Source: Nemertoderma westbladi
Lineage: Eukaryota; Animalia; Xenacoelomorpha
Assembly (NCBI GenBank): GCA_032718475.1
Contig: JAUCBJ010006914.1
Location: forward strand, 1-64,000
Direction of reading: 5' to 3'
DNA length: 64,000 nucleotides
Shown here: piece after piece, positions 19,173-62,742 of the stretch
How the letters are laid out: every line of letters starts with the position of its first letter
Position numbering within the stretch: position 1 is the stretch's first letter
Program-made: the position numbers and the translations under genes
The notes under the pieces: model-generated
Database searches by the model: none
Told to the model about the DNA's origin: nothing
The model's input: only the letters and a program-made list of their open reading frames with translations

Positions 19173-20250
19173 TGTAAAAGCTTTTGCGGAATTAGCTAGT
19201 CATTTTCCCCGCAAAGTACTCGGTAGGTGTTTTAGCGGACATAAAAAGCCATTTCCTTACTGTACCGGTGTTTTAGTGGACATAAAAAGCCATTTCTTCT
19301 GTAGGTGTACTTTAGCGGACATAACTAGCGATTTTATGTCGCAATAAGCCAAAATACTCTTGATACAGTGCAGTTCAGATGACGACATCTATCAGCTGAT
19401 ATGTCCACGTCAGTGTGTATTTTTCCTAAGCCTAGAACACCGGCTGTGGAATTATTCTGTGTTTGAGACTTTAGCCAAACATTAGAACAGTTTTGATCAT
19501 AGAAACGTATAACTGTTATTCTGCCAAACTGGCATACAGCCCATATCATACCATACATACCTTTCACCGCATTATTTTACTGCTATTTACTGTCGGTTAT
19601 TAATTGTACCAGTTGATGGAATATTGTTATATTTGGAGAATATCGATAAATAATCGTAAAACCCCAATCTTCTTGATATACTGAAGGTGAGAGACCGGTT
19701 ACATATAGCAATTGCGACTTACATTATATTGGTTTTGGAGTGAATTTAATGCTATTTCATAGGCCCTACATGTGTCGGTTGCTGTTCTCTTTATATGTGA
19801 CTAAAATTAGTGAAGGTCGGCAGAGATCGGTGTGCAGCATTGTGCGGTAGTGTGCATGAGTTTGATAGATAACAAAGCATCTCCTAAAGAATGCACTTTA
19901 TACGTGAATCAATAGCCATCCTGTTGTGTTTAGTGTAAGTCATAACTCTGTTTACATACTTAGAGCGCCACGTCCAAAAGGAACTGTTGATATTTCCCGA
20001 AAGTGAATAATATTTGTCAGAGATTATATATTAACGATCAATCGAATAATTCAGTAGGCCTACACAGCAATAAGGTCAGAGCTTCCGAATCCAGTCTCCC
20101 GGGTAAATCCAGCGGGTGAATGGTCGTGCATAGGCTGGCTTTGGCTAATGTAGTGTATCAAATACTTGTCATAGGCTAAAGTCGAATTATAACCTAGAAG
20201 ACACCTAAATTTGGCAGGTTAAACTGCTAAAAGGTCTAAAAGCGCGAACA
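19173..20250 (+). repeat. B1 5' LTR (lacks an ~80-bp segment present in the 3' LTR)
   Basis: Near-identical to 30532-31689. U3 holds three sub-repeats of TTTAGYGGACATAA. Confidence 0.92.
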
Positions 20251-20262
20251 ATAACAGTTATA
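20251..20262 (+). promoter_or_regulatory. B1 non-tRNA primer-binding site ATAACAGTTATA, complementary to LTR site 19508-19519
   Basis: Its reverse complement TATAACTGTTAT occurs at 19508-19519. No TGG start. Confidence 0.75.
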
Positions 20263-21849
20263 TCTTCTGATTGCAGTGTAGGCAATAAATACAGTTTAAT
20301 ATTGTTCTGGTAAGAACAATAACAGTTGTAAAGTACCGGTCGACCGGTAACCAGTAGGCCTGACTGCCTAACCACCCGAACCGGTACTTACAGCAGTACA
20401 GGTACAGCAGTATTATTCGATTTTGATAATTATATACCAGTAGGTCTTAATATTTAATCGGGGACGCCTGGTTTTTATTGGGATTTTACTTAGGCCTATT
20501 TCTGTCAGTTTTATTTATTTGAAAGTTAATATTGAACAGAAGGCGTGTAAGCCTGCTCAGATTGTACAGATAATTTGTAGGCTGGATTGTTGTCTGGCTG
20601 TTGTTAAGTCTGAAGAGATTGCAGTGTGTGTAGAGTGTATGTCCGATAAAGTACTAGTTAGGAACGTAGGGGCTTCCAGAGCTGTAAGGTAAATCCCCCC
20701 CCCCCCCCCCCCCCCGAAAGAATAAGTTGTACTACTCGGTTAGAACGCATACTAACTAACCATTTCGGAGTCTGCATATACTGTAGTTTATTTAGGCTTG
20801 ATAGTAGTCTGCCAGCATTTGGTTTGTATTTTGTTTGTGTAGTCTGTACGGGTAGCGTAATATTTATTATTCAGAGTTTATGCGATTATTCGCAACATTC
20901 ACAAACCCCAAGTTTATTCCTACAGTAATTGTGCTTGTTATACATACCTAACGGTATGTATAACAAGCACAATTAAGCGCAGTTAAATTAACCCCGGTAC
21001 TACATCAGGGCTGTTTGGCGTAGGTAAAGACTAGAGATTTTATGCTTTGGTCACTCTGGCAGATACCGTGGTTCTTTTAGCTGTACAAGTATTTTTTAAC
21101 TGCTGGTTATTTGTTGTATAAGTACTTGTACCTAATTTAGGGTTTAGTGTACAGTGCTTTCCGAAGGTAATTAGCGTGTAAGCAGTATATTTGTGTTGTA
21201 AAGTGGTTAATAGGCACGTTGGCTCTGGTAGGCCGCGGTAATTAACTTCTAGGTAGGAACACTCCGTGATACATAACGTAGTACTTATAGTGCTATGGCT
21301 ATAAGTCATCAGACGGTGGTATTTTTCCTATCTGGACAACGCAATATATTTACTACTGCTTTATTATTTTCAAATACCGTATTATCCTGTCCGTTTGTAA
21401 TAACCAGATTTTCTAACCCTTTGTTAGGCTGGTTTGTAGACTTCTTGTAAAATTACCCTAAAAATTCGTACGTGTAATTTTTGTGTTTATTATTAGAGAT
21501 TGTAATCTCACCCCGCAATTGTACATAATTTGTAGTAATAAGTAACTTAGGCAAGTAGAATTATTTGTTTTAGTGTCCAACAAGTAGCACTCCACTGAAA
21601 GCCTACAGCTTCTGTGTAGTGACTCCTTCCCAGAAATAATAAAATTTATTTCAAATATTGTAAAAAAACCCATTAAACGGGTATATATATTATAAATCAA
21701 CTCAAACCGATTTATAAAATAGTAGGCCTGTCATACAACAATTAGGTCTTAATATCAGTTGGACTACTGCTTAAATAATGGTAATAAAGTAAAGTAAAGT
21801 AACCAAGTAACCCCTTAAATTCAGAAATTCAATTATTCTAAAATAATTG

Positions 21850-22242: not shown

Positions 22243-25200
22243 ATGTCTGACACAAAGCAAAACCTGTCAGACAGTCTCCTAGATACAAGCATCTGTGACC
22301 CAGACAGGAGTGTGGAACGTGTGAGACTGAAGTTCAACTCACCTCCTACTGTGAGAAAGATCATCCCTCCAGTAGTGGTATCAGACCCTAGATAGTCCAA
22401 CACCGTAGGTCTATCATAGGCACTCGGGCTCAAGTCAAGCAGGACCAAGAAGCAGCTGTTAAACAGCAGCAACACTCGAGCCGAGAACTTATTTCTCAGT
22501 GGCCCGACAGCTCCAGTAGTTCGGATACTGTAGAGCTGACACCCGAGCGCGGAGCAAAGATGGCAGATGCAGTTTATTCGGATCCCCTTCTCATCCTTCC
22601 TGCAGCCGTACTCACTAGGGTATTGATTGCGGTGGAGGAACACCAAATTGATTGGGCGAGAAGTAAGCGATCGACCAAGGATAGTTATGCAGGATACACA
22701 AGGGAGGAACTGAAGTCTATTGTCGAGTCGCAATGGAACTTCCCCGGACCCGGACTCCCGTTTGACTTATCGGAAGCTGCCTGGGAAGACATACACAGGA
22801 TGGGAGTGACGAAAGACACTAGTGATCCAGCTGTGTGGAAGAGGTCGGCAGCAGGATATGTACAGGGATTCTTCAGCTCTTTGGAGCGATTAGAAGAACA
22901 ACTGTTTCGACAACCCCAAGGACCTCAAGAGTAGGGAGAGCTGCTTTATCAAGTTCGAGAAAGAATTCTAAGGATCAGACTAATCCTATCGGCCTTTGAG
23001 GAAGCTTCGAAAAGAAGACAAGACACGTCGTTGCAAGTTGCCGTAAAGACTTGGTTCCAGCGGGTGAGTCTCAAGGTTCAAGGAACGGCCCAGTGGAAAT
23101 TTCAGCTGGCTGAGCGCTCAACCCACAGAGAATCAACAGACGCTACCTTTTCTCAAGTGGAAAGCGAAGCGATAGCGGAGAAACCGCAGCAGAGGGACGC
23201 TATTGACATCTATCTGTCAGACTATCAACGATTCCTAGGTGACAAAGAGTTGAGGAGACGGCTGTCTGGACTTCGCCCTAATAGTGACGGAGCCAAGCTT
23301 GTGTTGGACGCAATAGATGCGGAAATGTTAGCTGCGAACCAAGCTAAATTTGATTAAAGCAGCCGCATCGCTAGGGTCCAAGAAGAACAAGTAAAGAAAA
23401 AACGTATAGAAGACAGAAAGACAGCAGCAGCAGCGGCAATGGCAGCGGCAGAAGCGGAAAGAAAGGTGGCAGAGGCAGTGGCAGAGGCAAAAGCGGCAGC
23501 TGCAGCAGTAGAAGCGGAAAGAAAAGCAGCAGCGGCAGAGGCAAAAGTGGCAGCGGCAGAGGCAAAAGCGGCAGCTGCAGCAGTAGAAGCGGAAAGAAAA
23601 GCGGCAGCGGCAGAAGCGGAAAGGAAGATAGCAGGGGCAGAAGCAGAACGAAGAGCATCTGAAGAGACCACCCAACTAGAGTTGGAAAATCTGCAAGAGA
23701 AGCAAGACTACATAGATAAACAGAGAACAGCTACTCAGTGGCAGCTGATAATTCGATCCACCCCCAAGCAACATGGCTTTACATCATCGGATGAAGGCGA
23801 TACAACAGATCCTGAAGGCGGAGGAAATAGATCTCGTCTCAGCAGGCGTAGAAGAATGCCCCACCGTCAGAAATTGCCTGATTTGCCCCCAGCTGTGAGA
23901 AGGCAACTAGCTAGCACAGACTTAGGTAGTACAGAACCCACAGACCAATTATTGTAGAAAGTCTCCCTACTATAGTAGATGAACCTGAAATAATTAGGCC
24001 TGTTCTCGAAGCCACCCCTTCGGTGATAGAGACACCTGTACTCCCAGAACCTACCTCTAAATTCCCTTTGCACAGCACTAAACTACCTGTGCCCAGCAGA
24101 ACCGCCCCTGAGACAGTTCCTGTCCTGGACTCCAAGCGAAATATCAACGATTTGTCGCCCGTGGTCCCTCGCCTGCCCGCTACTATGTTGGCGGCTCCCG
24201 CTTCGGCGGTCGAGTGGGTGGATGAGGGGCGGCGGGGGATGAATCTCCTGCTCGGGCAGATGCAGGAGACTGTTCATCAGTTTAAGGGAACTGTAAGGGA
24301 AAGTAGGTTAGAGTTGCAAGAAGTGCAGCAGAGTATCGCGTTAGAACGCGATAAATTAGTAAATACACAAAAGGGTATACCACCACCCCCTGTAACAATG
24401 TGTCAACCTGTTAGGTCTGAAGTATTTCATGCGCAAGGTGTGGAGCCTACACGCATCTATACTGCTAGTGAAGTGGAAACTCCTATAGTAAACCCTATTA
24501 AGGGTAATTCTAAACCTGTTGACAATGATATTCCATAGACCATAGACCCCATAGACCTCCATAGACCTGATCATAATCCGAGAAATTTATATACCGATAA
24601 CTCGATATTAAATAACACGATGGCCCAAGAAAGTTTTACGCGTCAAATGGCTAGAACCGAAGCCCGTCAAGCGGTAAAGGTGGGAGAGATCGTCAAGTTC
24701 AATGGAGATGAGATGAAATGGTTACCTTTTAATGAATATTACAAAGATAACATACAGAACTCTGTGCTATCTAACGGAGAGAAACTTAGATTCCTCATCG
24801 AGTGCTTGGAAGGATCTCCCAAGTTAATGGCGTTAAAGTTTATTGGACATCCAGATGGATTAAGACAAGTTTGGGATACACTGAACATCAGGTATGGTAA
24901 TAGGTAATAGCTAGGTATTTATATGCGAAATTAATGGCGCCCCGAAAGTTTCTTAGCAGCGGGATTATAGAGTTTTCCAACGAGATTCAGGAGATCTGTA
25001 GACAACTAGATTGGTTAGGTAAGTCTCATGAATACTAGAATTCTATGGTTGTAGGAGCCTTAGCATCTACTTTGCCCAAGGGCGGAGTAGGTACACGCTG
25101 GGACAAGAAAGTGTTATATATGATGGAACAACAACGAAGAGATCCTACCATGGCTGATCTCATGTCATTCTTAGATGGAGAGGTAAAATTACAGCTCCTA

Positions 25201-27265
25201 AAGCAGTCCAGAGAGAAGACACCGGAAAATAAGGTAAGTGAGAAACCCGTTTCTAGGAGAAAGGTAATACCAGTGTGTTATACAGACGACGGTGAAAGCC
25301 AGGCTTCTCAAGAGGAAGACAGTGGGAAAGACACTGAAAGATCTTACTATGACAACAAAGCGCCTAAGGACGTAAGTAAATTCAAGTCTCGAACCAATGA
25401 CAGGAGAGAACAGGTAAGAAAAACTCCTCCTACGACTCCTAAGAGAATTGATGGAAGAAAGCCCGAGGAAAGAACGAGTGTGCACAACGTTATCCAAAGT
25501 AAGGTAAGTAACATCAAACCAAAATGTGTGTTGTGCGATGGGCCCCACCGTTTAAGTGCGTGTGATGAATTCCTGAGGAAATCATTAAAAGATAGACGTG
25601 AACTCATGTGGGATAAGCGGTTGTGTTATAATTGCCTCAGACGAGGACACCAACGACGAACCTGTTACTCCGACACAAGGTGTGCTAAGTGCGGCGCAAA
25701 ACATCATATCTTGTTGCACACTGAATTCGAAAGAAACAGCCCGAGTCAGGTAAGTGAGTCCGAACTACATGTCCAATTCAGTGATGTGAACGACACTGAT
25801 CAAAGTTCTGAGATGGAAGGATTCTATACTGATAAATTCTCCGACGAAAACGAATCCTGTTACCTAATAAATACCGCAGTGTATCGAGCACTTACGTATG
25901 AGAAAGAAACCGATAGTGAGCTCCCCCCAACTGCTCCTGACCGACAACCATCTTGGAAAGCACCAACATCCAATGTAGGAATCCGAGAATTTCCCGTAGT
26001 GCAGTTGAGAGTCCACGGGCCTAAAAAGAGTTATATAGTGAACGCCCTCCTTGACTCCGGCAGCACACGAACATTCATCGACAAAGAACTAGCCGAAGAC
26101 ATCTTTGCTGGACAACCCAAGTTCCGAACTAAGTTGAACCTTGCAGGAATTATGCAGGTTTGGAAATCTACAGTAGTTACAGACTACTATGTAGGCGCGT
26201 TGTCCACCCCCCAGGATGAACTAGGAGAACACAGTATAAGGTCAGTAAAAATGGTGGTGATAAAGAACTTCGCTACCAGCCAAGTGGAACCTTATAACTG
26301 GGATGAGGACTATTTCACCCAGCAGCATAAGATACCTAGATTCAACACAGACTACCCTGGAGTGCAAATACTCATCGGCCAAAATGCGCATGAGGCGCTT
26401 GAGACATTGGAGAAACAGCCTGCTCAACCGCAACCACTGCAAACCTATGCGGGAAGAACAAGAGTAGGTTGGTACCTCACTGAACCTTCCCGTAGGACAC
26501 TCTTGGAAAGGCTACCCAAAGATCGGGTCCATAAGAAGAGAGTGAATGGGAAGAAGACATCAGTGAGGGAGACGACCCAACTGAGGGAACACCATACTCC
26601 TCAGATAATGGCGATATTAACTCCAATGTAGATCAATGGAGACATTGCCCCGAGACGATTAATCTAGCCGACATCGCTTCCAGAGGAGCAACTCCTCAAG
26701 AACTGACAGATACTCCAGACAGGTTAGGTGGACCCGACTTCCTAATTAAAGAAGATGAATGGCCTCCCCATCTTACCACGGCTGAGATTAGACAAGCCAA
26801 GGGAGCAGAGAAAGTCAAACCTAAATCCCGGACGAGTAAATCAAGGTTATTAAACCCGTGATAGATCTGTCTGTACAACACATTGCCAGGGCCAACACTG
26901 TGGATCTAAACTCCCCCACCGCGAACAGATCTGTTGTGGAGATCAGAGAGAGAGACTGGAGATCTGGAACACCAGACGTCTCGCAGGGACCCTCACCTCT
27001 CCTGCCGGGAGCGATGGACCACTATAGCTCCTGGAATCGGCTTTGTAAGGCCGTCGTGTATTTGAAGCGATGTTTCTATCGTCACTATTCCAGGACGAAG
27101 AGGAAACCTGGAATTGTCTTCGAGACACAGCAGCTCAATCGCCCAGTTGGTCGTTTATGTTTACTGGAAAGAGACAGAGAACTCTCCTGAAACTATGGAA
27201 GGCAAGATACTCTTCCCACGACCACCTCCCTAATCCAACCAACATCTAGGGACTCCCCAACGTAA
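22243..27265 (+). pseudogene. B1 gag-pol remnant (gag, three knuckles, protease, RNase H fragment, integrase tail)
   Basis: Colinear with B2, with many stops. VKFNGDEMKW, CVLCDGPHRLSAC/CYNCLRRGHQRRTC/CAKCGAKHHILLH, LLDSGS. Deletion junctions near 26620 (RT removed) and 27100 (integrase removed). Confidence 0.9.
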
Positions 27266-30531: not shown

Positions 30532-31689
30532 TGTAAAAGCTATTGCGGAATTAGCTAGTCATTTTCCCCGCAAAGTACTCGGTAGGTGTTTTAGCGGACA
30601 TAAAAAGCCGTTTCCTTACTGTACCGGTGTTTTAGTGGACATAAAAAGCCATTTCTTCTGTATGTGTACTTTAGCGGACATAACTAGCGATTTTATGTCG
30701 CAATAAGCCAAAATACTCTTGATACAGTGCAGTTCAGATGACGACATCTATCAGCTGATATGTCCACGTGTAACTTTTTCTTTGTTCGGTCGACCAATCA
30801 GAGCGATTTTCTTTGTGTTGGACAGTGCATATAGAAACTCACGCAATTCAGTCAGTGTGTATTTTTCCTAAGCCTAGAACACCGGCTGTGGAATTATTCT
30901 GTGTTTGAGACTTTAGCCAAACATTAGAACGGTTTTGATCATAGAAACGTATAACTGTTATTCTGCCAAACTGGCATACAGCCCATATCATACCATACAT
31001 ACCTTTCAACGCATTATTTTACTGCTATTTACTGTCGGTTATTAATTGTATCAGTTGATGGAATATTGTTATATTTGGAGAATATCGATAAATAATTGTA
31101 AAACCCCAAGCTTATTGATATACTGAAGGTGAGAGACCGGTTACATATAGCAATTGCGACTTACATTATATTGGTTTTGGAGTGAATTTAATGCTATTTC
31201 ATAAGCCCTACATGTGTCGGTTGCTGTTCTCTTTATATGTGACTAAAATTAGTGAAGGTCGGCAGATCGGTGTGCAGCATTGTGCGGTAGTGTGCATGAG
31301 TTTGATAGATAACAAAGCATCTCCTAAAGAATGCGCTTTATACGTGAATCAATAGCCATCCTGTTGTGTTTAGTGTAAGTCATAACTCTGTTTACATACT
31401 TAGAGCGCCACGTCCAAAAGGAACTGTTGATATTTCCCGAAAGTGAATAATATTTGTCAGAGATTATATATTAACGATCAATCGAATAATACAGTAGGCC
31501 TACACAGCAATAAGGTCAGAGCTTCCGAATCCAGTCTCCCGGGTAAATCCAGCGGGTGAATGGTCGCGCATAGGCTGGCTTCGGCTAATGTAGTGTATCA
31601 AATACTTGTCATAGGCTAAAGTCGATTTATAACCTAGAAGACACCTAAATTTGGCAGGTTAAACTGCTAAAGGTCTAAAAGCGCGAACA
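30532..31689 (+). repeat. B1 3' LTR
   Basis: Preceded by PPT-like CTGGGAGTGG. Starts TGTAAAAG, ends GCGCGAACA, followed by the TSD CCCAT. Confidence 0.92.
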
Positions 31690-33292: not shown

Positions 33293-34528
33293 TGTTCGCG
33301 CTTTCAGACCTTTAGCAGTTTAACCTGCCAATTTTAGGTGTCCTCTTGTTTATAAATCGACTTTAGCCTATAACAATTATTTAATGCACATGAAGTAACA
33401 TTAGCCGAAGCCAGTCTATGCGCGATCATTCACCCACAGTTAAGGGAGACTGGATTCGGATGCTTTGACCTTATTGCGTTGCAGACCTACTGTATTATTC
33501 GATTGATTGTTACTATATAATCTCTGACAATATTATTCACTTTCAGGGAAATATTAACAGTTCCTTTAGGACGTGGCGCTTTAAGTATAAAACAGAGTTA
33601 TGACTTATACTAAACACAACCAGATGGCTAATGATTTTCGTAAATAGCGCATTCTTTAGGAGATGCTTTATTATCTGTCACAATGCTGCATACGATTTCA
33701 CACTGCTGCACACTGATCTGCCGACCGTCACTGAATTTGATCATATATAAGGAGGATAGCAACTGACACATGTAGGGATTATGAAATAGCATTTAATGCA
33801 CACTAAACCACTGTAATGTAAGTCGCAATTGCTACCGGTAACCGGTCCCTCTAACCTTTAGTAATCAAGAAGATTGGGGTTTTATGATTATTTATCGATA
33901 TTCTCCAAATATAACAACATATCCATCAACATATAACCATTAATAACAGACAGTAAACAGAAGTACAATAATGCGGTGATATTCAGCCAGTATCGTTAAT
34001 ACCGGTACCGCAGGTGCCAAGTGACCAGTTGTTATGGTTAGTTGCACAGTTGCACAGTGCAGCAGGGCCAGTAATGGATCCAGTCAGTCCAGAGATAATA
34101 GATTTACGTTCTTGTAATCAAAGCCATCTAATGTTGGCCAGATTCTGAAACTTCTAACACAGAAGTACAGAATAATTTCTAAGCAGTTGTTCTCGCTCAG
34201 AAAGGTAAAACCAAGACCGTCATGCATTGCGCGGTTTTCCGTAGGCCTCTGTGCAAAATAAAATGAAAATCGCTCTGATTGGTCGAGCGAGCCGAACAAA
34301 GAAAGTTAAGAAAGCTCCACATCGACATCAAATCAGCTGACAGATGTCGTCATCTGAACTACACTCTATTTAGAGTATTTGGCGTATTGCGGCATAAAAT
34401 GGCTTGTTATGTCCGCTAAAACACCTACAGGGTACATTGCGGAGAAAATGGCTTGTTATGTCCGCTAAAACAACTAAACAGTTTATTGCGGAGAAAAATG
34501 ACTGGTTATATCCGCAAAAGCTTTTACA
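33293..34528 (-). repeat. B2 3' LTR
   Basis: Near-identical to 47965-49200. Preceded on the minus strand by CTGGGAGCAG. Confidence 0.93.
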
Positions 34529-37852: not shown

Positions 37853-40800
37853 TTACGTTGGGGAGTCCCTAGATGTTTGTTGGATTAGGGAGGTGGTCGT
37901 GGGAAGAGTATCTTGCCTTCCATAGTTTCCGGACAGTTCTCTGTCTCTTTCCAGTAAACATAAACGACCAACTGGGCGATTGAGCTGCTGTGTTTCGAAC
38001 ACAATTCCAGGTTTCTTAAAGTTACGTTGCATGACGACGAGTTCTACCGATCGCACCAAACCATCATCTGAGATATGAGTCTCGATGATACGACCTGTCT
38101 GCCACCACTTACGTGGAAGATCTGATTCCACAATAAGGACCATGTCTCCGGCGCTGATGTTTTCTTGCTGCGCAAACCACTTGGTTCGAAGTTGTAGCGT
38201 AGGCAGATAATATTTTTCGAAATGGTCAGCGAAACGACGGGATAATAACTGCATAAGTTGCCAAGTTTGTTGGCAGTATTCGTCTATGTCCGTGATTTCC
38301 GATCGTGGGAGCATGGCTACAGGTTTCTTCAGTAGGAAGTGCGCAGGTGTTAGCGCTTCCAGGGAGTCGGTACTCGATGAGACTGGCATAAGCGTTCTTT
38401 CGTTAAGATAGGCGGTGATTTCTTCCATTAATGTCCGCAAAAGTTCGTCGGTGAGATACGCGCGGCATGGCACTATAAAGTGAAATGTGGTCTTCACGCT
38501 TCTTATTAATCTCTCGCAACTTCCTCCCCACCAAGGGGCGTTGGCGGCATTGAATGTCCAGCTAGATGATGTTACCCTTAGCTGATCGTCCACCTGTCTT
38601 TGGTTCCAATCTCTAACGTAAGCCTTGATCTCATTATTGGCGCCAATGAAGTTCGTCCCCTTATCAGATCTCATCGTGTTGCTAGTTCCAAAGCGAGCGA
38701 TCTGTTGGCGTAGACTCAGTATGAAGCTGTTGGTAGATAGATCGTTCACCATATCTAAATGGATCGCTCTACAAGTCATACAGACAAAGATGACACACCA
38801 TCGCTTGACTATATTCCTGGCACGATATACTTCAATAGGGCCAAATAAATCCACACCAGTATTAGTAAAGGGTGGTTCATAGAAGCTTACTCGTTCCCTA
38901 GGTAATTCTGCCTCTCGCTGTGTTAAAGGCCTACTGAATGCTTTCCTACAGGGTATACAGTTCCTAAGAACTTGGTTCAGAGCTCTACGGGGTTTATGAA
39001 AATAATAGCGAGTTCGAATTTCGCTAAGAACTCGTTCTCTACCAGCATGGTAAAGCTTACTGTGAACATCTACAATCATCTTGATTTGTATTTCAAGATT
39101 TCTAATGAGTATGGGAAACTTAGTGTCAAAGGATAATGGAGCATTAGTTAGTCTCCCTCCAACACGTATTAACCCATCTATCATTGTGCTAGAGAAACGA
39201 TCCCTTAAGCGCATCTATGGATTTCTCAACAACAGGAAATACTTATCGGAATCTTCATAGCATTGCAGGAGTCTCAGTATCTGCTTATTGGTTTCTTCAT
39301 GCTCCTGGTAACTGATCTTCTCCGTCAGAAACCTATCTGAGATTTTATATTTGGGAAGATCTTTAATAGCATGGACCTGCACAGATGTCAGTGGAGCGGT
39401 ATCACTAGCGATCTTCGTCCTGGAGTAGTGATGATGAAAGCATCGCTTTAAATATACGATGGCCTTACAAAGCCGATTCCAGGAGCTATAGTGATGTATC
39501 GCTCTCTGTATGAGAGGTGAGAGTCCCTGTGAAACGTCTGGTGTTCCAGATTTCCAGTCTCTCTCTCTGATTTCCACAACAGACTTATTTGTGGCGGGGG
39601 AGTTTAGATCCACAGCAACGTCTCCGGAAATATGTAGTACAGACAGATCTATCACGGGTTTAAATAACTTCGATTTACTCGTCCGGGTTTTAGGTTTGAC
39701 TTTCTCCGCTCCCTTGGCTTGTCTAATCTCAGCCGTGGTGAGATGAGGAGGCCATTCATCCTCTTCTTTACTTAGGAAGTCGGGTCCACCTAACCAGTCT
39801 GGAGTGTCTGCCAGTTCTTGAGGAGTTGCTCCTCTGGAGGCGATGTCGGCTGGATTAATCGTCCCAGGGCAATGTCTCCATTGATCTACACTAGTGCGAC
39901 TAAGTATAACGACTACTCTGTTGGTAACGAAGACGCTGAACTGACAGACTTCATTGGTTATATACTCCATAACGAGTAAAGCATCAGTCCAATAGACAGT
40001 TTTCTCCAGTGGATAGTCGATCTGTTCTGTGACATTCCGGCCGATGGCTGTAGCGTATAGAGCTGCCTTTAACTCCGCTCGAGGAACTCGTAGCTTGTAG
40101 TTTATCAAGGCCTTAGAGGTAACCAAGGCAACTTTAATTCCATCCGGAGTTTCAACCCTCAGGTAGGCTACTATACCTATTCCCATATCGCTGGCGTCTC
40201 CAAACACATGGAGTTGATAGGAATATGTGGGGAGAACATGACCAAAATATGAACGGGAAATCGTAAAGTTCCCGATGGATGGTAGAGAATCTTCCCATTT
40301 CATCCACTTCTTTAGTAGTTCTCCCTTAAGTGGATCGTCCCACGAGTGGTTTTCAAGCCACATTTGTTGAACTAAACTCCGAGCAACCAATATAACTGGG
40401 CGAATAAATCCCAATGGATCGAAATAAGTGCTCGGATACTTAGACAAATCCGTTTAGTTCGAATTGGATTATCTCGCTGTTTTAGCTGGAAAAACAGGAT
40501 ATCTCTCTCCGTGTCCCATTTCAAACCAAGCGTCTTGGTTTCTGGAAGATCGTCCTTGATAAGGTCTAGATCTTTAACTCCTCGGTCTTCTACCGGGATC
40601 GATTCCAGAAATTCACGGGAGTTACTGGTGAATTTAGTTAATCGAAATCCACCTCTTTTCAAGCACTCTACCGTTCCCTTGGCGACATCAATGGCTTCTT
40701 CCACCGATGGGAGGGACTTTAAATTGTCGTCCATGTATATATCCCGTTTGATGTTACCGATAACCACTTTAGAGAAGGCGTCCCGGTTGTCATCAGCAGT

Positions 40801-43800
40801 GGTGCGCACTACTGAGCAGGCGTTTGAGGGGCTCGAGATGATCCCAAAAGCCTGGATGGTCATCCAGTACTCCACCGGTTTCTGGTTGAGGTCTCCTTCA
40901 GGCCACCACAGAAATCGTAGGCTGTCTCGATCCCTATTCAGCGCCTTAACTTGTAAGAACATGCCTTCTATATCCGAGGCGAAAGCAATCGAATATTGTC
41001 GTAATCTTAAGAGTATTCCCAACAAGGATTGGAGTAAGTTGGGTCCCGGCAACAACTCGGAGTTAAGGGATTGGCCCATGTAGAGGGCGAAGCCGTCAAA
41101 TACTACCCGGACTTCGTTGGGTTTACCGGGTTTGGGAACGTAATGATGTGTTAAATAGTACGTTCTCTCAGTTATGGGTGTTTCTTCCTGTACTCGCTCC
41201 GCATATCCCTTGTCAATGAATTTCTTCAGCTGGGTCTTGTACATCTCCTTAGCTGAAGCATTTGCCGTAAGGCGTCGATGTAGTTGCGCGATTCTCTTCT
41301 CTGCCAAGGGTCGGTTATTTATAAAATTGGGTTCTCGCCGTCGGAAAGGCAGACCAATCTCATACCTACCTTGATCTTTAAGAAAACGTGTAGTCGTTTC
41401 CTGTATCTGCTTGGCTCTTTCCTCTTCTACCGATAGGGCCTTATCATAGGAATTAGGCTCTACAGCTTCTTGAGTAAAGAATCGTATGGCGTGTTCATCG
41501 CGAGTCTTCGCGTTGTAATGATCTATCACTTCATTCAGTTCGTCGTTGTAATCGACTTGTCCACCTGGATGGATGAGGTGACACAGGTTCACTTGGTTTT
41601 GCCAAGTTTCATTTTCCGTAAGGAGGTCGATGGTATTCTCCTTGTTGAATAGTTGATGAATATCGTCATTATCTGAGGAGTATGGTGTTCCCTCAGGTGT
41701 GTCGTCTCCCTCACTGATTTCCTCTTCCCATTCACTCACCTGGTGGACTTGATCTTTAGGTAGCCTTTCCATGAGTGTCCTACGGGAAGGTCCAGTAAAG
41801 TACCAACCTACTCTAGTTCTTCCTGCATAGGTTTGCAGTGATTGCGGTTGAGCAGGCCTTTTCTCTAATGTCTCAAGCGCCTCATGCGCATTTTGGCCGA
41901 TGAATATTTGTAACCCTGGGTAGTCGGTGTTGAATCTAGGTATCTCATGCTGCTGGGTGAAGTCGTCTTCATCCCAGTTATAAGGTTCCTCTTGGCTGGT
42001 AGCGAAGTTCTTTATCGCCACCATATTTACTGACCTTATACTGTGTTCTCCTAGTTCATCCTGGGGGGTGGATAACGCGCCTACATAGTAGTCTGTAGCT
42101 ACTGTAGATTTCCAAACCTGCATAATTCCTGAAAGGTTCAACTTAGTTCGGAACTTGGGTTGTCCAGCAAAGATGTCTTCGGCTAGTTCTTTGTCGATGA
42201 ATGTTCCTGTGCTGCCGGAGTCAAGGAGGGCGTTCACTATATAGCTCTCTTTTAACCCGTGGACTCTCAACTGCACTACGGGAAATTCTCGGATTCCTAC
42301 GTTGGAAGTTGGCGCTTTCCAAGATGGTTGTCGGTCAGGAATAGTTAGGGGGAGCTCACTATCGGTTTCAGTCTCATATGTAAGTGCTCGATACACTGCG
42401 GTGTTTATCATATAGCAGGATTCGTTTTCGTCGGAGAATTCGTCCGTGTAAAATCCTTCCATCTCAGAACTGTGGTCAGTGTCGTTCACATCACTGAATT
42501 GGACATGTAGTTCAGACTCACTTACCTGACTCGGGCTGTTTCTTTCGAATTCGGTGTGCAACAAGATATGATGTTTCGCGCCGCACTTAGCACAACTTGC
42601 GTCGGAGTAACAGGTTCGCCGTTGGTGTCCTTGTCTGAGACAATTATAACACAACCGCTTATCCCACATGACTTCGCGTCTATCTTTTAGGGATTTCTTT
42701 AAGAATTCATCACACACACTTAAACGATGGGGCCCATCGCACAATGCACATTTTGGTTTGATGTTACTTACTTTACCTTGGGTAGTGTTGGGTACACACG
42801 TTCTTTCCTCGGGCTTTCTTCCATGAACTCTCTTAGGAGACGTAGGAGGAGTTTTTGTTACCTGTTCTCTCCTGTCACTGGTTCGAGACTTAAAATTACT
42901 TACGTCTTTATGTGCTTTGTTGACATAGTAAGATCTTTCGGTGTCTTTCCCGCTGTTCTCCTCTTGAGAGGTTTGGCTTTCGCAGTCATCTGTATAACAC
43001 ACTGGGGTGACCTTTCTCCTAGAAACAGGTTTTTCAGTTACCTTATTTTCTGGTGTCTTCTCTCGGGACTGCTTTAGGAGCTGTAATCTTACCTCTCCAT
43101 TTAAGAATGACATGAGATCAGCCATGGTAGGGTCTCTTTGTTGCTGGTCCATCATATAGAGCACTTTCTTGTCCCACCGAGTACCTACTCCACCCTTTGG
43201 CAAAGTAGAGGCTACGGCTCCAATAACCATGGAACTCTGATATTCATGAGACTTACCTAACCAATCTAGTTGTCTACAGATCTCCCGAATCTCATCGGAA
43301 AACTCTATAATCCCGCTGCTAAGGAACTTTCGGGGCGCTACTAATTTCGCATACAAATACCTAGCTATGTTTGTCCTATTACCATACCTGATGTTTAGTG
43401 TATCCCAAACTTGTCTTAATCCATCTGGATGTCCAATAAACTTTAACGCCATTAACTTGGGAGGTCCTTCCAAACACTCGATGAGGAATCTAAGTTTCTC
43501 TCCGTTAGATAGTACAGAGTTCTGTATGTTATCTTTGTAATATTCATTAAAAGCTAACCATTTCATCTCATCTCCATTGAATTTGACGATCTCTCCCACT
43601 TTTACCGCTTCACGGGCTTCGGTTCTAGCCATTTGACGCGTAAAACTTTCTTGGGCCATCGTGTTATTTAATATCGAGTTATCGGTATATAAATTTCTCG
43701 GATTATGATCAGGTCTAAATTGAATATCATTGTCAACAGGTTTATAATTACCCTTAATAGTGTTTACTATAGGAGTTTCTACTTCACTAGCAGTATAGAT

Positions 43801-46058
43801 GCGTGTAGGCTCCACACCTTGCGCATGAAATACTTCAGACCTAACAGGTTGACACATTGTTACATGGGGTGGTGGTATACTCCTTTGTATATTTACTAAT
43901 TTATCGCGTTCTAACGCGATACTCTGCTGCACTTCTTGCAACTCTAACCTACTTTCCCTTACTGTTCCCTTGAACTGTTGAACAGTCTCCTGCATCTGCC
44001 CGAGCAGGAGATCCATCCCCCGCCGTCCCTCATCCACCCACTCGACCGCCGAAGCGGGAGCCGCCAACATAGTAGCGGGTAGACGAGGGACGACGGGTGA
44101 TAAATCGTTGATGTCTCGCTCGGCGTCCAGGACAGGAATTCTCTCAGGGGCTGTTCTACTGGGCACAGGTAGTTTAGTGCTGTGCAAAGGGAATTTAGAG
44201 TTGGGTTCTGGAAGTACAGGTGTCTCTATCACCAAAGGGGTGGCTTCGAGAACAGGCCTAATTATTTCAGGCTCATCTACTATAGTAGGGAGTCTTTCTA
44301 CTCTAATAATTTGGTCTGTGGGTTCTGTACTACCTAAGTCTGCGCTAGCTAGTTGCCTTCTCACAGCTGGGGGCAAATTAGGCAATTTCTGATGATGAGG
44401 CGTTCTTCTACGTCTGCTGGAACGAGATCTATTTCCTCCGCCTTCAGGATCTGTTGTATCGCCTTCATCAGATGATGCAAATCCCTGTCTCTTGGGAGTA
44501 GATCGACTTATCATCTGCATATACTTAGCTGTTCTTTGTTTATTGAAGTAATCTTGCTTCTCTTGAAGATTTTCCAACTCTAGTTTGACTGTCTCTTCAG
44601 ATGCCCTCCGTTCTGCTGCTGCCACTGCCTCTGCCGCCTTTCTTTCCGCTTCTGCCGCTGCTACCTTTCTTTCCGCTTCTGCCTCTGCCGCCGCCATTGC
44701 CGCTGCCGCTTTTCTTTCCGCTTCTGCCGCTGCCGCTTTTCTTTCCGCTTCTGCCGCTGCCGCTTTTCTTTCAACTTCTGCCGCTGCAGCTGCCGCTTTT
44801 CTTTCAGCCTCTGCCACTGCCGCTGCAGCTGCCGCTTTTCTTTCAACTTCTGCCGCTGCCGCTGCCGCTGCTGCTGCCTTTCTGTCTTCTATCCATTTTT
44901 TCTTTAATAATTGTTGTTCCTGTTCCCTGGCGATGAGGATGCTTTCATCAAATTTAGCATGCTCTACGGCTAACATTTCCGCATCTAATGCGTCTAACAC
45001 AAATTTGGCTCCCTCACTAGTAGGATGAAGTCCAGACAGTCGTCTCCTTAGCTCTTCGTCTCCTATAAATCGTTGATAGTCCGACAGATAGATGTCAATA
45101 GCGTCCTTCTTCTGAGGTTTCTCCAATGTCGCTTCGCTTTCCACTTGAGAAAAGGTAGCGTCTGTTGATTCTCCATGGGTTGAGCGTTCAGCCAGCTGAA
45201 TTTTCCATTGGGTTGTTCCTTGGACTTTAAGACTTACCCGTTGGAACCAAGTCTTTACGGCAACTTGCAACGACGTGTCTTGGCTTCTCTTCGAGGCTTC
45301 CTCAAAGGCCGAAAGGATCAGTCTGATTCTTAGGATTCTTTCTCGAACTTGGTAAAGCAGCTCTCCCTGCTCTTGAGGTCCTTGGGGTTGTTGAAACAGT
45401 TGTTCCTCTAATCTCTCCAAAGAGCTGAAGAATCCCTGTACATATCCTGCTGCCGACCTCTTCCACACAGCTGGATCTCTTGTGTATTTTGTCACTCCCA
45501 TCCTGTATAGGTCCTCCCAGGCAGCTTCCGATAAGTTAAACGGGAGTCCGGGTCCGGGGAAGTTCCATTGCGTCACGACAATAGACTTCAGTTCCTCCCT
45601 TGTGTATCCCGCATAACTGTCCTTGGTTGATCGCTTACTTCTCGCCCAATCGATTTGATGTTCTTCTACCGCAATCAATACCCTAGTGAGTACGGCTTCA
45701 GGAAGAATGAGAAGTGGATCCGAATAAACTGCTTCTGCCATCTTGGCTCTGCGTTCGGATGTCAACTCTACCATATCTGAACTACTGGAGCTATCGGGCC
45801 GCTGAGAAATAAGTTCTCGGTTCGAGTGTTGCTGCTGTTTAACAGCTGCCTCTTGGTCCCGCTTGACTTGAGCCCGAGTGCCTATGATAGACCTACGGTA
45901 CTTTACTAGCCTAGGGTCGGATACTACTACTGGAGGGATGACCTTCTTACAGTAGGAGGGGACTTGAACTTCGGTCTCAAACGTTCCGCACTCCTATCTG
46001 GATCGCAGACTGTTGTTTCTAGGAGACTATCTGACAGATTTTGCTTTGTGTCAGCCAT
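37853..46058 (-). pseudogene. B2 gag-pol polyprotein (near-intact): gag, three knuckles, protease, RT, RNase H (peptidase A17-like), integrase
   Basis: The 1800-aa ORF 40372-45774 has LLDSGS and YMDD. 39215-40447 has LHVFGDAS, YWTDA and NPADIASRG. 37853-39214 has the HHCC finger, GVDLFGP, SDKGTNF and CERLIRS. Lesions: N-terminal frameshift, frameshift near 40440, TAG at 39215-39217. Start inferred from B1/B3 (ATG at 46058). Confidence 0.93.
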
Positions 46059-47953: not shown

Positions 47954-47964
47954 AAATCTATTAT
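47954..47964 (-). promoter_or_regulatory. B2 non-tRNA PBS ATAATAGATTT, complementary to LTR site 48767-48777
   Basis: Plus-strand 47954-47964 AAATCTATTAT is the exact reverse complement of plus-strand 48767-48777 ATAATAGATTT. Confidence 0.75.
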
Positions 47965-49200
47965 TGTTCGCGCTTTCAGACCTTTAGCAGTTTAACCTGC
48001 CAATTTTAGGTGTCCTCTTGTTTATAAATCGACTTTAGCTTATAACAATTATTTAATGCACATGAAGTAACATTAGCCGAAGCCAGTCTATGCGCGATCA
48101 TTCACCCACAGTTAAGGGAGACTGGATTCGGATGCTTTGACCTTATTGCGTTTCAGACCTACTGTATTATTCGATTGATTGTTACTATATAATCTCTGAC
48201 AATATTATTCACTTTCAGGGAAATATTAACAGTTCCTTTAGGACGTGGCGCTTTAAGTATAAAACAGAGTTATGACTTATACTAAACACAACGAGATGGC
48301 TAATGATTTTCGTAAATAGCGCATTCTTTAGGAGATGCTTTATTATCTGTCACACTGCTGCATACGATTTCGCACTGCTGCACATTGATCTGCAGACCGT
48401 CGCTGAATTTGATCATATATAAGGAGGATAGCAACTGACACATGTAGGGATTATGAAATAGCATTTAATGCACACTAAACCACTGTAATGTAAGTCGCAA
48501 TTGCTACCGGTAACCGGTCCCTCTAACCTTTAGTAATCAAGAAGATTGGGGTTTTATGATTATTTATCGATATTCTCCAAATATAACAACATATCCATCA
48601 ACATATAACCATTAATAACAGACAGAAAACAGAAGTACAATAATGCGGTGATATTCAGCCAGTATCGGTAATACCGGTACCGCAGGTGCCAAGTGACCAG
48701 TTGTTATGGTTAGTTGCACAGTTGCACAGTGCAGCAGGGCCAGTAATGCATCCAGTCAGTCCAGAGATAATAGATTTACGTTCTTGTAATCAAAGCGGTC
48801 TAATGTTGGCCAAAGTCTGAAACTTCTAACACAGAAGTACAGAATAATTTCTAAGCAGTTGTTCTCGCTCAGAAAGGTAAAACCAAGACCGTCATGCATT
48901 GCGCGGTTTTCTGTAGGCCTCTGTGCAAAATAAAATGAAAATCGCTCTGATTGGTCGAGCGAGCCGAACAAAGAAAGTTAAGAAAGCTCCACATCGACAT
49001 CAAATCAGCTGACAGATGTCGTCATCTGAACTACACTCTATTTAGAGTATTTGGTGTATTGCGGCATAAAATGGCTTGTTATGTCCGCTAAAACACCTAC
49101 AGGGTACATTGCGGAGAAAATGGCTTGTTATGTCCGCTAAAACAACTAAACATTTTTTTGCGGAGAAAAATGACTGGTTATATCCGCAAAAGCTTTTACA
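47965..49200 (-). repeat. B2 5' LTR
   Basis: Minus strand TGTAAAAGC...GCGCGAACA, with only scattered differences from the 3' LTR. Confidence 0.93.
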
Positions 49201-49747
49201 GTCTCAAAAAAAGTGCCAAAAGTAGGGTTAAAAAATGGTGCTATAACTCGAAAAGTACCCAATATTTTTGAAAACGGTTTTCACTACTAGGAAGACAATA
49301 GATTTTTAGGAAAAGTCTTAAAATTTCAGATTCCCAACTGCGTTTGTTTTAGAATTATAATAAAAAAACCACGGCGGGGTCATTCTAAAAACTGATAGTG
49401 TGGCATTGTTGGCTAGAATTAGTAGGTATTTCACTATGCTGAATCGAATGTAATTATATTCCATTTCCTAAAATTGAACTGGATGCTATTTTTCGTGCAA
49501 CTAAGAAGTGGGCGTGGCACTTCAAATTTTGAAAAATACCCCCATCTTTTGATTTCAACTCGTTTTTATAGGTTTTCTGGACTGCTGAATCGATTGAAAA
49601 TATTATCGAAGCCTGGCGCCACCTAGCGAGGTATGGCAATACTGCTTTTTACCGAATGTATATATAGTGCAATTTAAATCATAATTATCAGACTCGGTAT
49701 TATTTTACATACCCCACGTTGGGTAGCTAATAGGCCATACTTTTCAG

Positions 49748-49958
49748 CACTACACTACACTACACTACACTACACTACACTACACTACACTACACTACAC
49801 TACACTACACTACACTACACTACACTACACTACACTACACTACACTACACTACACTACACTACACTACACTACACTACACTACACTACACTTCACTACAC
49901 TACACTACACTACACTACACTACACTACACTACACTACACTACACTACACTACACTAC
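49748..49958. repeat. (CACTA)n microsatellite, ~42 units
   Basis: Direct observation. One variant unit near 49891. Confidence 0.97.
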
Positions 49959-50121
49959 TTACTGACTTCCGAATCCATGATCCCAGGTAACAGAAGTCAT
50001 CCACATGCTCAAGCATACCATCTTTTGAGTTTATGCTCATCCGATCAAAGTTAACTGTCAACATTTTGGTCTTTCTTGTTAGCTTATCCAATTCCGCTAA
50101 CCTACCCCATAAAGTGAGCCG

Positions 50122-50638
50122 TTAAGCAATATTGGGAACACGAGGTTGATTACCAATATCAACCTCGTATCACCCAACAAAGTGGGAAGGAGAAAATACA
50201 CACACACACGCACAATAAGGGTCAGGGGTTACACCCTTGAAAGAGAGAGAATAGCAGGGGCGAAGGGAAGCACTTCAGGGGGGGCAAAGGGCGACAACAG
50301 GGTTATTAGCCAATGGGGGGAAGGCACCGGCTGGGTAACGTAACTTGGCCAACCGTGCAATATATATTATCAGTGCAGTAATCATTTCGTTCACTTATAG
50401 TAAGTCAGCTTAGCTAGGGTAGTACCGGAACTTCAATTACTGTCTTCGTATACCATCCGTGTATCCAATATCATATCATATACCTTGTGTCATCGTTTAT
50501 ATATCTTATATCATATCCTTACTATTATACCCAGAAGACTATATACAGCGATCAATAACTCTCTTTACCTTTCACACACGGCGGGGACGCGTAGATTGAA
50601 AACCGGATAAACTGGGATCCTTCATAGATCCCGTCACA
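50122..50638 (+). repeat. A2 5' LTR (first ~45 bp missing)
   Basis: TTAAGCAATATTGGGA...CCAATGGGGGGAAGGCA...ACCGGATAAAC.GGGATCC...GATCCCGTCACA aligns with 14497-15031. Confidence 0.78.
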
Positions 50639-50698
50639 GTAATTTAATCCAAACTGCCGCCCTAGTTAAACAGCCCAAACTGACTGCCAGATACCAAG

Positions 50699-53600: not shown

Positions 53601-56513
53601 AGGTAGGCCAGGAGCTGATAGGCCTATACCGGTACCAGCACAGCAGTATGACTACAGCATGCAAGGGCATAACATATACCCAGGGGAGGGGGGAATGATT
53701 GCGGATAGGTGCATGGGCCCCAATATATTAACATCAACCCCAGTACCAAGCATACCGGTGGGGGGGGGGGGGGACAGGGTGACATTCCCCCATCACAATA
53801 TCAACAATATACCCCGATAGGAGCAAGAACAACGAGACCCTTGGATGAAAACAGATCATGCGACACAGAAATATGGAGGGGGCCGCTACCCCCAATGATA
53901 TACCCAAGCCAAAGGAAGGTAGAAAATAGGACGGACGGACCACACGCAATAGGAGAAACTATACAACATCCATCGAACCCATTGGAAGCGCAGGCGATGG
54001 GGATGGCCACGTTGATCGATGCTTTAAAAACTAGGATCGAGTTACCACCCGTGGAACCGTTTAAATTCGATGGGAGTAGGCCGGAAGAATATCTGCAGTT
54101 TCGGCGCATGTATAGTAACAAAATACTAACAAAGAACTTGACGCAGGCGGAGTGCCTAAAATATCTGCAAGTATATACAGGAGGCCCAGCATACGACATC
54201 GTGAGGCAATACCAGGGTATAGAGGGCAGTTTCACGATGGCATGGCGGGCATTGGACAGGGAATACGGGCACCCGGACAAGATCATCCGGCAAACCCTGA
54301 GGGGCATAACATCGGGTGGCCTATAGGATAATCCCGTTAGCATAAAGACATTCGCTAACAAAGTCGAGAAGGCGCTAATCATGCTAAAGACGCTAGACGC
54401 GCCATACGAATCAACACATCCAACAACATCACCACGATATCGCAGGCACTACTGATGTGGCTGCGCAACAAGTGGAGGAAGATCGCTTTCTCCACTCGAG
54501 ATAGGAAGGGTGCGGAACCGGGTTTAGAAGAAATGTCGAGCTTCTTGAACTACGAAGCCGAATTAATAACCGACCCAGTCTATAGTGAGGACAGCCTGGG
54601 AAAGGGACCAAGAACTGACTACCATAGACCGAAACCAAAACAAAACTCGTCAAACGCATTACCAAAGCTCAGGCAATCATTGCCATACGCAGCGACGCAG
54701 GGGACTGCAAGTCCACAGGTAGCCGGGGGGTAAGACCACATCATGGAGCAGACAGGGGAAAGATAACAACACAAATAAATATAACCCCAGTACGCCCAGT
54801 AGGCCGAACCCAAACAATAAGAATAGTAGGGACTTTGGTACAAATGCAGCTGCGATACGCGATGCACTGTACAAGGACGGCTATGACCCAAAGAGCAAAT
54901 GCCAGCTACATACAAATGCGCTTCATCAAACCATGAACTGCAGGTACTGGCAAGTGCTACCCAGGGAAGATCAGGTAGAGTACGCGGCGAGGAACGAGAT
55001 CTGCTCGCGATGTGTCATGAGTGGACATAGAGCTAGGCAATGCAAGGAGACACCAATTAAGTTCGGTCAAAGGAAAGGCCAAACGATGGCAACGAGCACA
55101 GTAGGGGCGAAAAGGAGAGGAACGGTGCTACTTGGGGTAGTACCAGTGCGAGTGATTGGAGAAGGCAACCGATCAGTAACCACATTGATGCTGGTCGATA
55201 GTGGAGCTGCCTTCACATTAATTGAAAATTGGGTGGCCGAAGAGATAGGATTGAGAACGAGGCCAAGTAGAATGGCGGTAACAACAATCTCTAGCAAAGA
55301 TGAGGTCCTGGAGATGAGGAGCGGACGGTGCACGATTGCAGCGGTGGCACCGGGATGCGACTACGGGGCGACCATCGACCCAATCCAAGTGATAGAGTCA
55401 ATAAATATCAATGCCAGGTGGCCAACCAACATCGAGGTCGAACAATATAAATTCCTGGATGATATCGACTTCTCAATCCCAGAGGTGGACGTTAGGAAGG
55501 TATCCTCATAGTAGGAATGGACTGCCCGACGGCCCACAAAAGAATGCAAACGGTCTTCGGCGAAGACAGGCAGTGTGATCCGGTGGCGATATTGACGCCG
55601 TTCGGGTGGACGCTGAGTGGCCAAATTAAGAGTAAGATACCATTTAGGATGTCGGAGACATCGGGATGCATGTTCGCGGGAACTATGCAGGAAATGGGGG
55701 ATGAGGGAGCGGAGGAACAGCTCAAGAGACTGCTCAGGCAAGATTTTGAGGGACTAAAGGAAACCGGGGTCGGAACCTCGGTGGAAGACAAGCAGGCTCA
55801 GCAGAGCGTAGAGGAGTCTATGAGATGCGATGAGGGGCGGTATACCATAGGAATGGTATGGAAGCTACCAAAACTACCGCTGCCCGATAATAAAGCAATG
55901 GTACTCACGAGGCTTCGTAAGTTGAAACAGACGTTAAAACGGAGCCCCGAAAAGAATGAGTACATTCATAAAACAATCAGAAAGTACGTCGAGAAGGGAT
56001 GGGCCGTGGAGTTACCGGTCGACGTACCAAACACAGACAGGACATATTACCTGCCACTCCACGTGGCTTTAGATCCGAAGAAAGGTAAACTGCGGATGGT
56101 AGTGCAAAGACCGACGGGAAATGCCTAAACGACTATCTGCTAGAGGGTCCCAACATATACAACTCTGTGATAGAGGTCCTACTCAGATTCAGGAATGGAA
56201 AACACGCCTTCACCTGTGACATAGAAGGCATGTTCAACCAAGTCCGTGTGATGGGAGAGGATAGCGACAGTCAACGCTTCCTATGGTGCGACGGCGACGT
56301 GGAACCGTCGACAATACCGATGTACAAGATGATAGTACAGAATATGGGAGCCAAGTCGTCTTCTTTCACGACGACTATGGCCGTAAGAGACACAGTAAAG
56401 GGAAAGGAAGATAAGTACAGCACTAGAGCCATCGATATGATTCGACGCGGCTTCTACGTAGACGACGGGATGGAATCTGCAAACACGGTTAAGGAGCTAT
56501 TGGACACAGGACG
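50699..56513 (+). pseudogene. A2 gag-pol, 5' part (long gag with EREAERK coiled-coil repeats and N-rich tract, protease, RT through YVDD)
   Basis: ORF pieces 50699-52072 to 56167-56532, colinear with A1. LMLVDSGA and GFYVDDG. Frameshifts, several of them at poly-G runs. Confidence 0.88.
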
Positions 56514-57710: not shown

Positions 57711-57722
57711 ATAACGGATATA
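57711..57722 (+). promoter_or_regulatory. B3 non-tRNA PBS ATAACGGATATA, complementary to LTR site 56948-56959
   Basis: Its reverse complement TATATCCGTTAT occurs at 56948-56959. Confidence 0.75.
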
Positions 57723-62740: not shown

Positions 62741-62742
62741 AT

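Follow-up and report, generated by a model that had tools for sequence, protein, structure and literature searches.

Family B, a group of BEL/Pao retrotransposons, appears to prime reverse transcription with RNA derived in some form from the element itself, a reading drawn from sequence to which we assign a probability of about 0.9. Nested LTR retrotransposons fill the window, the whole 64-kb stretch of DNA analyzed here, and three of them (B1, B2, and B3) are copies of this family. The BEL/Pao assignment follows from a gag-PR-RT-RH-IN order with BEL/Pao-type domains. B2 encodes DUF1759, RT, Peptidase_A17, Integrase_H2C2, and DUF5641, its nearest RT homologs are BEL/Pao polyproteins (35–46% identity; the named ones are mostly from marine invertebrates), and the 120 RT homologs listed for B2 carry the same domain families. 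The LTRs have TG...CA ends, with a purine tract before the 3′ LTR and 5-bp target duplications in all three copies. LTR ends were set from the paired LTRs and these duplications in every copy, which places the terminus, ...GCGCGAACA, independently of the PBS. The elements are laid out as follows.

19173–20250, plus strand: 5′ LTR of B1, 1078 nt, target duplication CCCAT
22308–27100, plus strand: gag-pol remains of B1, frameshifted; with no RT match within it, B1 is non-autonomous
30532–31689, plus strand: 3′ LTR of B1, with an 11-mer identical to the 5′ copy at 30951–30961, a TATA-like box at 30828, and TCAGT at 30848
47965–49200, minus strand (read 49200–47965): 5′ LTR of B2, 1236 nt, target duplication GAGAC
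37853–45993, minus strand: gag-pol of B2, three open stretches separated by one frame change and one stop
33293–34528, minus strand (read 34528–33293): 3′ LTR of B2, with the same 11-mer and inner partner as the 5′ LTR
56514–57710, plus strand: 5′ LTR of B3, 1197 nt, target duplication GGACG
61435–61754, plus strand: remnant of the B3 3′ LTR, cut down by the deletion that also removed pol

The open stretches of B2 run from 45993 to 40372 (gag, protease, and RT), 40453 to 39215, and 39214 to 37853 (integrase); no RT match was found in B1 or B3. Since the LTR pairs differ at only 15 of 1073 columns in B1 and 19 of 1234 in B2, both insertions are young. B1 and B2 are arranged tail to tail with 1.6 kb between them. 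B3 (56509–61759) is nested in a family A element's pol region, and its own pol and most of its 3′ LTR are gone.

These elements lack an 18-nt PBS complementary to the 3′ end of a tRNA: no family B 5′ LTR is followed by TGG. The 64-kb window contains no tRNA genes, whose internal segments are what the PBS matches in half-tRNA priming (Ty5, Osser, and Bianca type). As the original prediction held, the bases after the 5′ LTR are in all three copies the exact complement of one site in the LTR, directly behind AACGT. Its coordinates and letters were all correct on re-check.

19509–19519, plus strand: candidate self-primer 11-mer of B1, exact complement of its PBS
20251–20261, plus strand: PBS of B1, offset 0, no TGG
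48767–48777, minus strand: candidate self-primer 11-mer of B2, exact complement of its PBS
47954–47964, minus strand: PBS of B2, offset 0
56949–56959, plus strand: candidate self-primer 11-mer of B3, exact complement of its PBS
57711–57721, plus strand: PBS of B3, offset 0

The complement at offset 0 spans 12, 11, and 12 nt in B1, B2, and B3, respectively, with a single exact site per LTR, and in each copy the 3′ end of the 11-mer is flush with the U5 boundary, as had been claimed. A pairing of 13 out of 13 had been given for B1; it is exact over 12 nt, and the 13th pair uses the LTR's own last A. These lengths (11–12 nt in 3/3 copies) fall within the Tf1-type definition of at least 10 nt of LTR complement in a PBS located 0–5 nt after the 5′ LTR. 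All 33 site–PBS cells are Watson–Crick, and sliding the register by 1–3 columns gives 8–13 of 33. When every site is compared with every PBS, the diagonal shows no mismatches and the off-diagonal cells show 2–3, i.e., each PBS fits its own copy only. The four variable positions were indeed all mirrored in the PBS of the same copy (one private change in B1, two in B2, and one in B3). RNAalifold on the three copies selects the primer–PBS helix, with 4 compensatory pairs. Variation in the 11-mer, at 4 of 11 columns, is about that of the LTR background (283 of 1017).

Several controls set the chance level. Internal 11-mers with an exact LTR complement number 2 of 10191, 7 of 13291, and 4 of 3631 in the individual copies; 126–206 of 200000 shuffled PBS sequences have one, and a liberal search that permits split matches as well is satisfied by 1, 8, and 2 of 200 shuffles in the three copies. 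The sequence after the 3′ LTRs matches over at most 5 nt at offsets 0–4, with one 8-nt match at offset 5. Both sites are in phase in only three copies, and because these are mutually related, the weight rests on the four mirrored substitutions. By a hand estimate from the private substitution rates (0.035, 0.128, and 0.094), mirroring by drift would have a probability of ∼1e-6.

All four sequencing runs were examined as contigs. Family B is abundant in the contigs of the DNA runs, with at least three site types among them, and the PBS complement is 11–12 nt in most copies; one contig of run X1 carries a B2-type PBS whose complement reaches 3 nt further upstream (14 nt). Summed X1 contig depth on B3 falls from 90501 at 56959–61 to 1121 at 56965–67, a collapse just past the 11-mer that marks where a conserved island ends on its 3′ side and is due in part to B3-specific sequence. 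Two contigs of run X5, which is possibly RNA and has another organism label, miss the prediction made from the X5 PBS variant, a sample (n = 2) that is too small to weigh. A DNA pattern scan of metagenomes came back empty.

The variation itself bears on whether the pairing might be regulatory only, hiding the PBS or tuning packaging or translation, while a host RNA, for example a piRNA or a fragment of a tRNA, serves as the primer. Copia half-tRNA primers without TGG do exist according to the available text of PMC6317226, which lends this idea a precedent. A host primer would, however, keep the PBS constant, and the PBS differs in all three copies, among the contig variants, and in about nine families of relatives, with the varying sequences always matching the element's own LTR. 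We consider a host primer very improbable.

Near the PBS there are also downstream duplicates of the LTR end plus PBS, which are possibly fossils of earlier priming or of strand-transfer slips.

20314–20330, plus strand: duplicate in B1, one mismatch relative to the junction
57775–57796 and 57833–57849, plus strand: duplicates in B3, each with one mismatch relative to the current PBS

A downstream duplicate in B3 is complementary to a site type present among the X1 contigs. Right after the PBS, all three copies carry an ATTGC/GCAAT hairpin with a variable loop that ends in a conserved AATAAA (20269–20290, 57735–57752, and, on the minus strand, 47945–47920).

Relatives of family B extend these observations. 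Loci were fetched by RT alignment and comprised the 80 best among 557 confirmed stretches of metagenome sequence and 40 from genome bins (120 in all). A flanking direct repeat is present in 52 and absent from 68; the 3′ copy ends within the contig in 25 and runs off it in 27; 20 are CA-ended and 5 are not; and with 2 non-credible cases (L092 and L114) removed, 18 have credible LTRs. Five of these 18 have a TGG-type PBS, and 13 do not. Perfect pairing over 11–15 nt with a GT-AG splice junction of the element's own LTR is seen in 11 of the 13 without TGG and in none of the five with it, where the best self-complement is 4–6 nt. The case for self-priming is consequently stronger than originally argued. 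Ten of the junction matches are equaled by 0–2 of 200 shuffles, and the remaining one (L012) was added by a wider LTR window. Donors read GTAAG, GTGAG, or GTACG, and the acceptors are pyrimidine-rich. Two further cases judged by eye, L081 (10 of 11 across the junction) and L062 (an unbroken 10 nt at offset 4), are not counted as perfect. Allowing for near duplicates (L002/L003 and L012/L021), the relatives represent about nine families. Between L084 and L085, three changes are mirrored, in the exon-1 part of the complement. A complement that exists only after splicing needs the element's RNA, which excludes DNA-level correction of an inverted repeat. A splice-junction primer was also considered for family B itself and rejected, as its contiguous match equals or exceeds the split one in length and the 11-mer has no pyrimidine-rich acceptor in front of it.

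Blind scans of loci with an undefined LTR end gave 2 matches among 13 loci (2 of which had unusable regions; nulls 0) and, in a second set of 10, 2 perfect matches, 2 with one mismatch, and 6 without a match (null 0). No relatives were found in viral contigs. In the RT tree, B2 sits on a long branch (1.21; best identity 45%) within a 36-row group (support 98/94) that includes all of the self-complementary elements and no named reference element that would place it in Pao, Sinbad, Dan, Flow, or Suzu; four TGG-type rows stand apart, on long branches. One element with a TGG-type PBS, L046, has an RT that falls inside the self-complementary clade and may represent reversion, recombination, or tree error. 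The 40 loci with BEL/Pao RT matches from bacterial and archaeal genome bins (L081–L120) are probably eukaryotic contigs binned with symbionts.

The persistence of these LTR introns, although the primer needs splicing, would be accounted for if short LTR-initiated RNAs from any copy or solo LTR, spliced in the relatives, primed a separate genomic RNA in trans. The AATAAA directly after the primer in L084 and L085 and the abundance of family B in the DNA runs agree with such a source. Free priming in trans, with copying of the PBS, should, however, produce mismatched copies, and each PBS matches its own LTR only despite the several site types among the contigs. On balance, it seems improbable.

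Priming by the element's own transcript is further informed by a second partner of the primer. In an exhaustive scan of the three-copy LTR alignment for helices that are Watson–Crick in all copies, with the PBS excluded, only two helices of at least 6 bp have 2 co-varying columns, and both engage the primer segment. Primer positions 6–11 pair with 57330–57335 of B3, and CGT plus positions 1–4 pair with 57359–57365. This inner partner lies ∼400 nt downstream of the 11-mer, inside the LTR, with a conserved 23-nt hairpin between its strands.

19869–19904, plus strand: inner partner of B1 (6 nt, 23-nt hairpin, 7 nt)
48311–48346, minus strand: inner partner of B2 (6 nt, hairpin, 7 nt)
57330–57365, plus strand: inner partner of B3 (57330–57335 and 57359–57365)

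The inner partner mirrors all four variable primer positions, and in B2 and B3 the helix extends over positions 12–13. Column shuffling gives expectations of 1.4e-4 and 3e-6 for the two helices, and none of 300 shuffled alignments contains two such helices (mean 0.0). Since primer copying cannot rewrite the inner site, its covariation argues for selection on RNA pairing. The original prediction had attributed the covariation to rewriting of the PBS when the primer is copied. Such rewriting is plausible but not needed, because a partner that cannot be rewritten mirrors the same four changes, and PBS covariation alone does not prove it.

Single-sequence folding with 45 upstream nt predicts pairing of the primer with the inner partner at 0.48–0.97 in B1 and 0.83–1.0 in B3; in B2, the prediction is 0.87–0.99 for positions 6–11 only, with the second arm at 0.1. 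Primer–PBS pairing on the naked RNA is predicted at just 0.00–0.07, so a chaperoned switch must be assumed. Single-sequence folding thus prefers the inner partner, whereas the alignment fold prefers the PBS helix, and as the two pairings are mutually exclusive, they suggest an RNA switch. Among the spliced relatives, an inner match is significant in 2 of 9 (0 and 1 of 300 shuffles) and not in the other 7 by an exact-match test. Rfam over 56400–58100 returned three weak matches, all far below the gathering score and none on the three-way junction that the primer forms with the inner partner. We rejected a hammerhead reading of that junction, in which the linkers (AA and 3 nt) lack the hammerhead core and for which Rfam gave no match.

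We next consider where the transcript starts, as this determines the position of the primer within it.

56793–56858, plus strand: predicted core promoter of B3 by motif match (CCAAT at 56793, TATA-like box at 56830, TCAGT at 56854–56858)
56910–56928, plus strand: upstream strands of B3, predicted to pair as 56910–56918 with 57636–57644 and 56922–56928 with 57606–57612

In B3, the CCAAT, TATA-like, and TCAGT motifs precede the 11-mer by 156, 119, and 95 nt, with a similar arrangement in the B1 3′ LTR; the predicted B3 start is at ∼56856. By eye, TATA-like boxes are located 115–135 nt upstream of the primer in B1, B3, and 6 of 9 spliced relatives. Helices predicted nearby also engage nucleotides upstream of the 11-mer. 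The segment 39–31 nt upstream (56910–56918) forms a 9-bp helix with U5 that has one compensated pair and two G-U-preserving changes; it is one of 2 helices of at least 8 bp (0 in 12 shuffles), with the caveat that it rests on that one compensated pair and that a U3 strand (56803–56809) is likewise compatible with that U5 column. Beside it is an invariant 7-bp helix (56922–56928 with 57606–57612), and the inner-partner helix itself uses 3 nt upstream of the 11-mer. The simplest reading, as these patterns suggest, is a transcription start ∼95 nt upstream of the 11-mer. Because the upstream helix and the CCAAT-TATA-TCAGT array suggest a start there, the primer is probably internal, unlike that of Tf1. 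The Tf1 geometry first proposed, in which the RNA would begin with the 11-nt primer, is disfavored by the helices and the distant TATA boxes, and the alternative put forward alongside it, a start ∼100 nt upstream at the TATA/TCAGT site, gains from both.

Some features count against an internal primer. Two relatives have TATA-like boxes at Tf1-compatible distances as well, 31 nt (L033) and 26 nt (L085) upstream; B2 retains CCAAT with a degenerate TATA and initiator; and an 80-nt deletion relative to the 3′ LTR has taken the CCAAT/TATA region out of the B1 5′ LTR. A strictly Tf1-type mode, in which the 11-mer, at the transcription start or within 3 nt of it, is cut off and primes while the inner and upstream helices form in the 3′ LTR copy, whose U3 is transcribed, and shield it, would fit those two boxes, and a 5′-terminal primer would account for PBS length by run-off. 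The complement length has a sharp 11-nt mode in family B and its relatives, as it does in Tf1 by the available text of PMC7175516. A T/A step sits just before the 11-mer, and an invariant AACATTAG occupies the TATA position, 31–21 nt upstream. However, R would then have to extend 415–700 nt beyond the primer, past hexamers that are poly(A)-like and conserved (GATAAA, +137 to +210; AATACA, +538 to +610) and that precede the +688 partner, and 95 nt upstream CCAAT, TATA, and TCAGT are canonically spaced, an arrangement found again in L084 and L085 (TCAGT at −94 and −89). We judge a strictly Tf1-type start unlikely.

A start 95 nt upstream would also give a plausibly short R if the 11-mer were the 3′ end of the transcript, at a poly(A)/cleavage site in the 3′ LTR, and folded back to prime, which is another self-derived mode. 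Yet none of the three LTRs has AATAAA or ATTAAA upstream of the 11-mer, the stretch after it is A/C-rich and not GU-rich, such a 3′ end would be missing the inner partner 400 nt downstream, and fold-back would erase the LTR intron of the relatives in one cycle although the introns persist. It is a highly improbable mode.

We lean modestly toward an internal 11-nt LTR primer, ∼95 nt inside the transcript, that would switch from the inner partner to the PBS and prime from a cut 3′ end. Transcription would start at the TATA/TCAGT promoter, and the R-U5 fold would join CGT and the 11-mer with the inner partner in a three-way junction (7 bp, the hairpin, and 6–8 bp), keeping the primer shut. In the particle, the 11-mer would move to the PBS, probably helped by the Cys-His nucleocapsid domain, and by analogy with Tf1 the element's RNase H would cut after position 11 to give the priming hydroxyl, such that DNA synthesis would begin at the LTR's last base. 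The 5′ limit of the primer could be set by a second cut or where plus-strand copying stops. Against this reading, a 95-nt tail on the primer is a difficulty for plus-strand transfer. Host splicing would build an equivalent primer in the spliced relatives; the family B version comes ready-made. More tentatively, and at somewhat less than even odds, tRNA priming may have been replaced across a large, mostly aquatic branch of BEL/Pao by an RNA switch in which a buried, often splice-built primer is locked by a PBS mimic and released by cleavage only in the particle, an arrangement that would tie splicing and RNA folding to the onset of reverse transcription.

Family B appears Tf1-like at the PBS without being a member of the Tf1/sushi group, from which it probably differs in the position and gating of the primer. 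Cer7-group BEL elements of Caenorhabditis elegans reportedly have a proposed element-encoded primer RNA, tRNA-like and located in the internal region; the family B primer would differ from this in being a segment of the LTR. In Tf1, an 11-nt LTR-encoded primer is released by an RNase H cut between bases 11 and 12, according to the available text of PMC7175516, PMC4600332, and bioRxiv 10.1101/2022.12.06.519325. As far as the accessible descriptions go, Tf1/Tf2 (Schizosaccharomyces pombe), Tj1, Tosmo, and the Tf1/sushi chromoviruses resemble family B in having no tRNA site and an 11-nt LTR complement by the 5′ LTR. That group is Ty3/gypsy, whereas family B is BEL/Pao, with no chromodomain match in the domain search, and thus falls outside the Tf1/sushi lineage. 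In the same accessible descriptions the Tf1 primer is 5′-terminal, while that of family B is probably internal and its relatives build theirs across an intron. The second co-varying LTR partner of family B is likewise absent from the three-duplex "pretzel" as described there; of the corresponding duplexes in family B, the LTR-end helix is predicted and invariant (1–5 of 60 shuffles as strong), and a leader–U5 duplex is not significant (10–35 of 60 shuffles as strong).

Self-primers have been predicted for Tcn1 (Ty3/gypsy) and for TAR, Houba, and Osr-1 (all Ty1/copia) from an LTR complement of at least 10 nt located 0–5 nt after the 5′ LTR (PMC6317226, available text). Family B shows the same signature; those elements are from plants and fungi, and the available text describes no inner partner or intron for them. 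In fungal GalEa Copia elements the PBS is likewise replaced by a self-pairing sequence, the Conserved Hairpin Site, which in the accessible part of PMC5445492 is a local hairpin of conserved sequence with no LTR complement according to its authors, whereas family B pairs with its LTR. ICTV describes Belpaoviridae as primed by host tRNA, with an 18-nt PBS that complements tRNA-Arg or tRNA-Gly (PMC8742986); family B shares the domain content and order, the ∼1.2 kb LTR, and the purine tract before the 3′ LTR, and differs in having no tRNA PBS. No report of self-priming or of a splice-built primer in BEL/Pao was found in the full-text literature searched; the available text of PMC5341516, PMC3601003, PMC10886601, and PMC13524379 reports no BEL/Pao self-priming, and a term search of what is accessible of PMC554778 and PMC3118150 gave no mention of PBS or tRNA.

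If correct, these findings would extend self-priming to a third LTR superfamily, BEL/Pao, for which ICTV gives tRNA priming and calls replication poorly understood (PMC8742986). They would add an internal, gated, often splice-built primer, a mode absent from the accessible text of the Tf1 papers. They could also account for BEL/Pao elements in which no PBS is found. The self-complement is a computable signature for annotation, and the reading predicts exact RNA ends. Such elements would be expected to evade tRNA-fragment control and to depend on splicing instead.

Finally, several other features of the window were observed. At the start of U3 (19173–19330 and its equivalents), a TTTTAGCGGACAT-like unit is repeated imperfectly three to four times, and an invariant 8-bp helix, possibly by chance, joins this part to the end of U5. 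Family A, another and distant BEL/Pao family with its 5′ LTR and leader at 50078–50660, likewise has no TGG site. The end of its LTR together with the next 6 nt (50636–50644) is complementary to 50435–50443 of its own LTR, and with only 6 exact nt beyond the LTR end, this self-complement is suggestive at best. Long arrays of the CTACA pentamer occur at 49740–49960 and 62700–64000, one of them beside the family A 5′ LTR.
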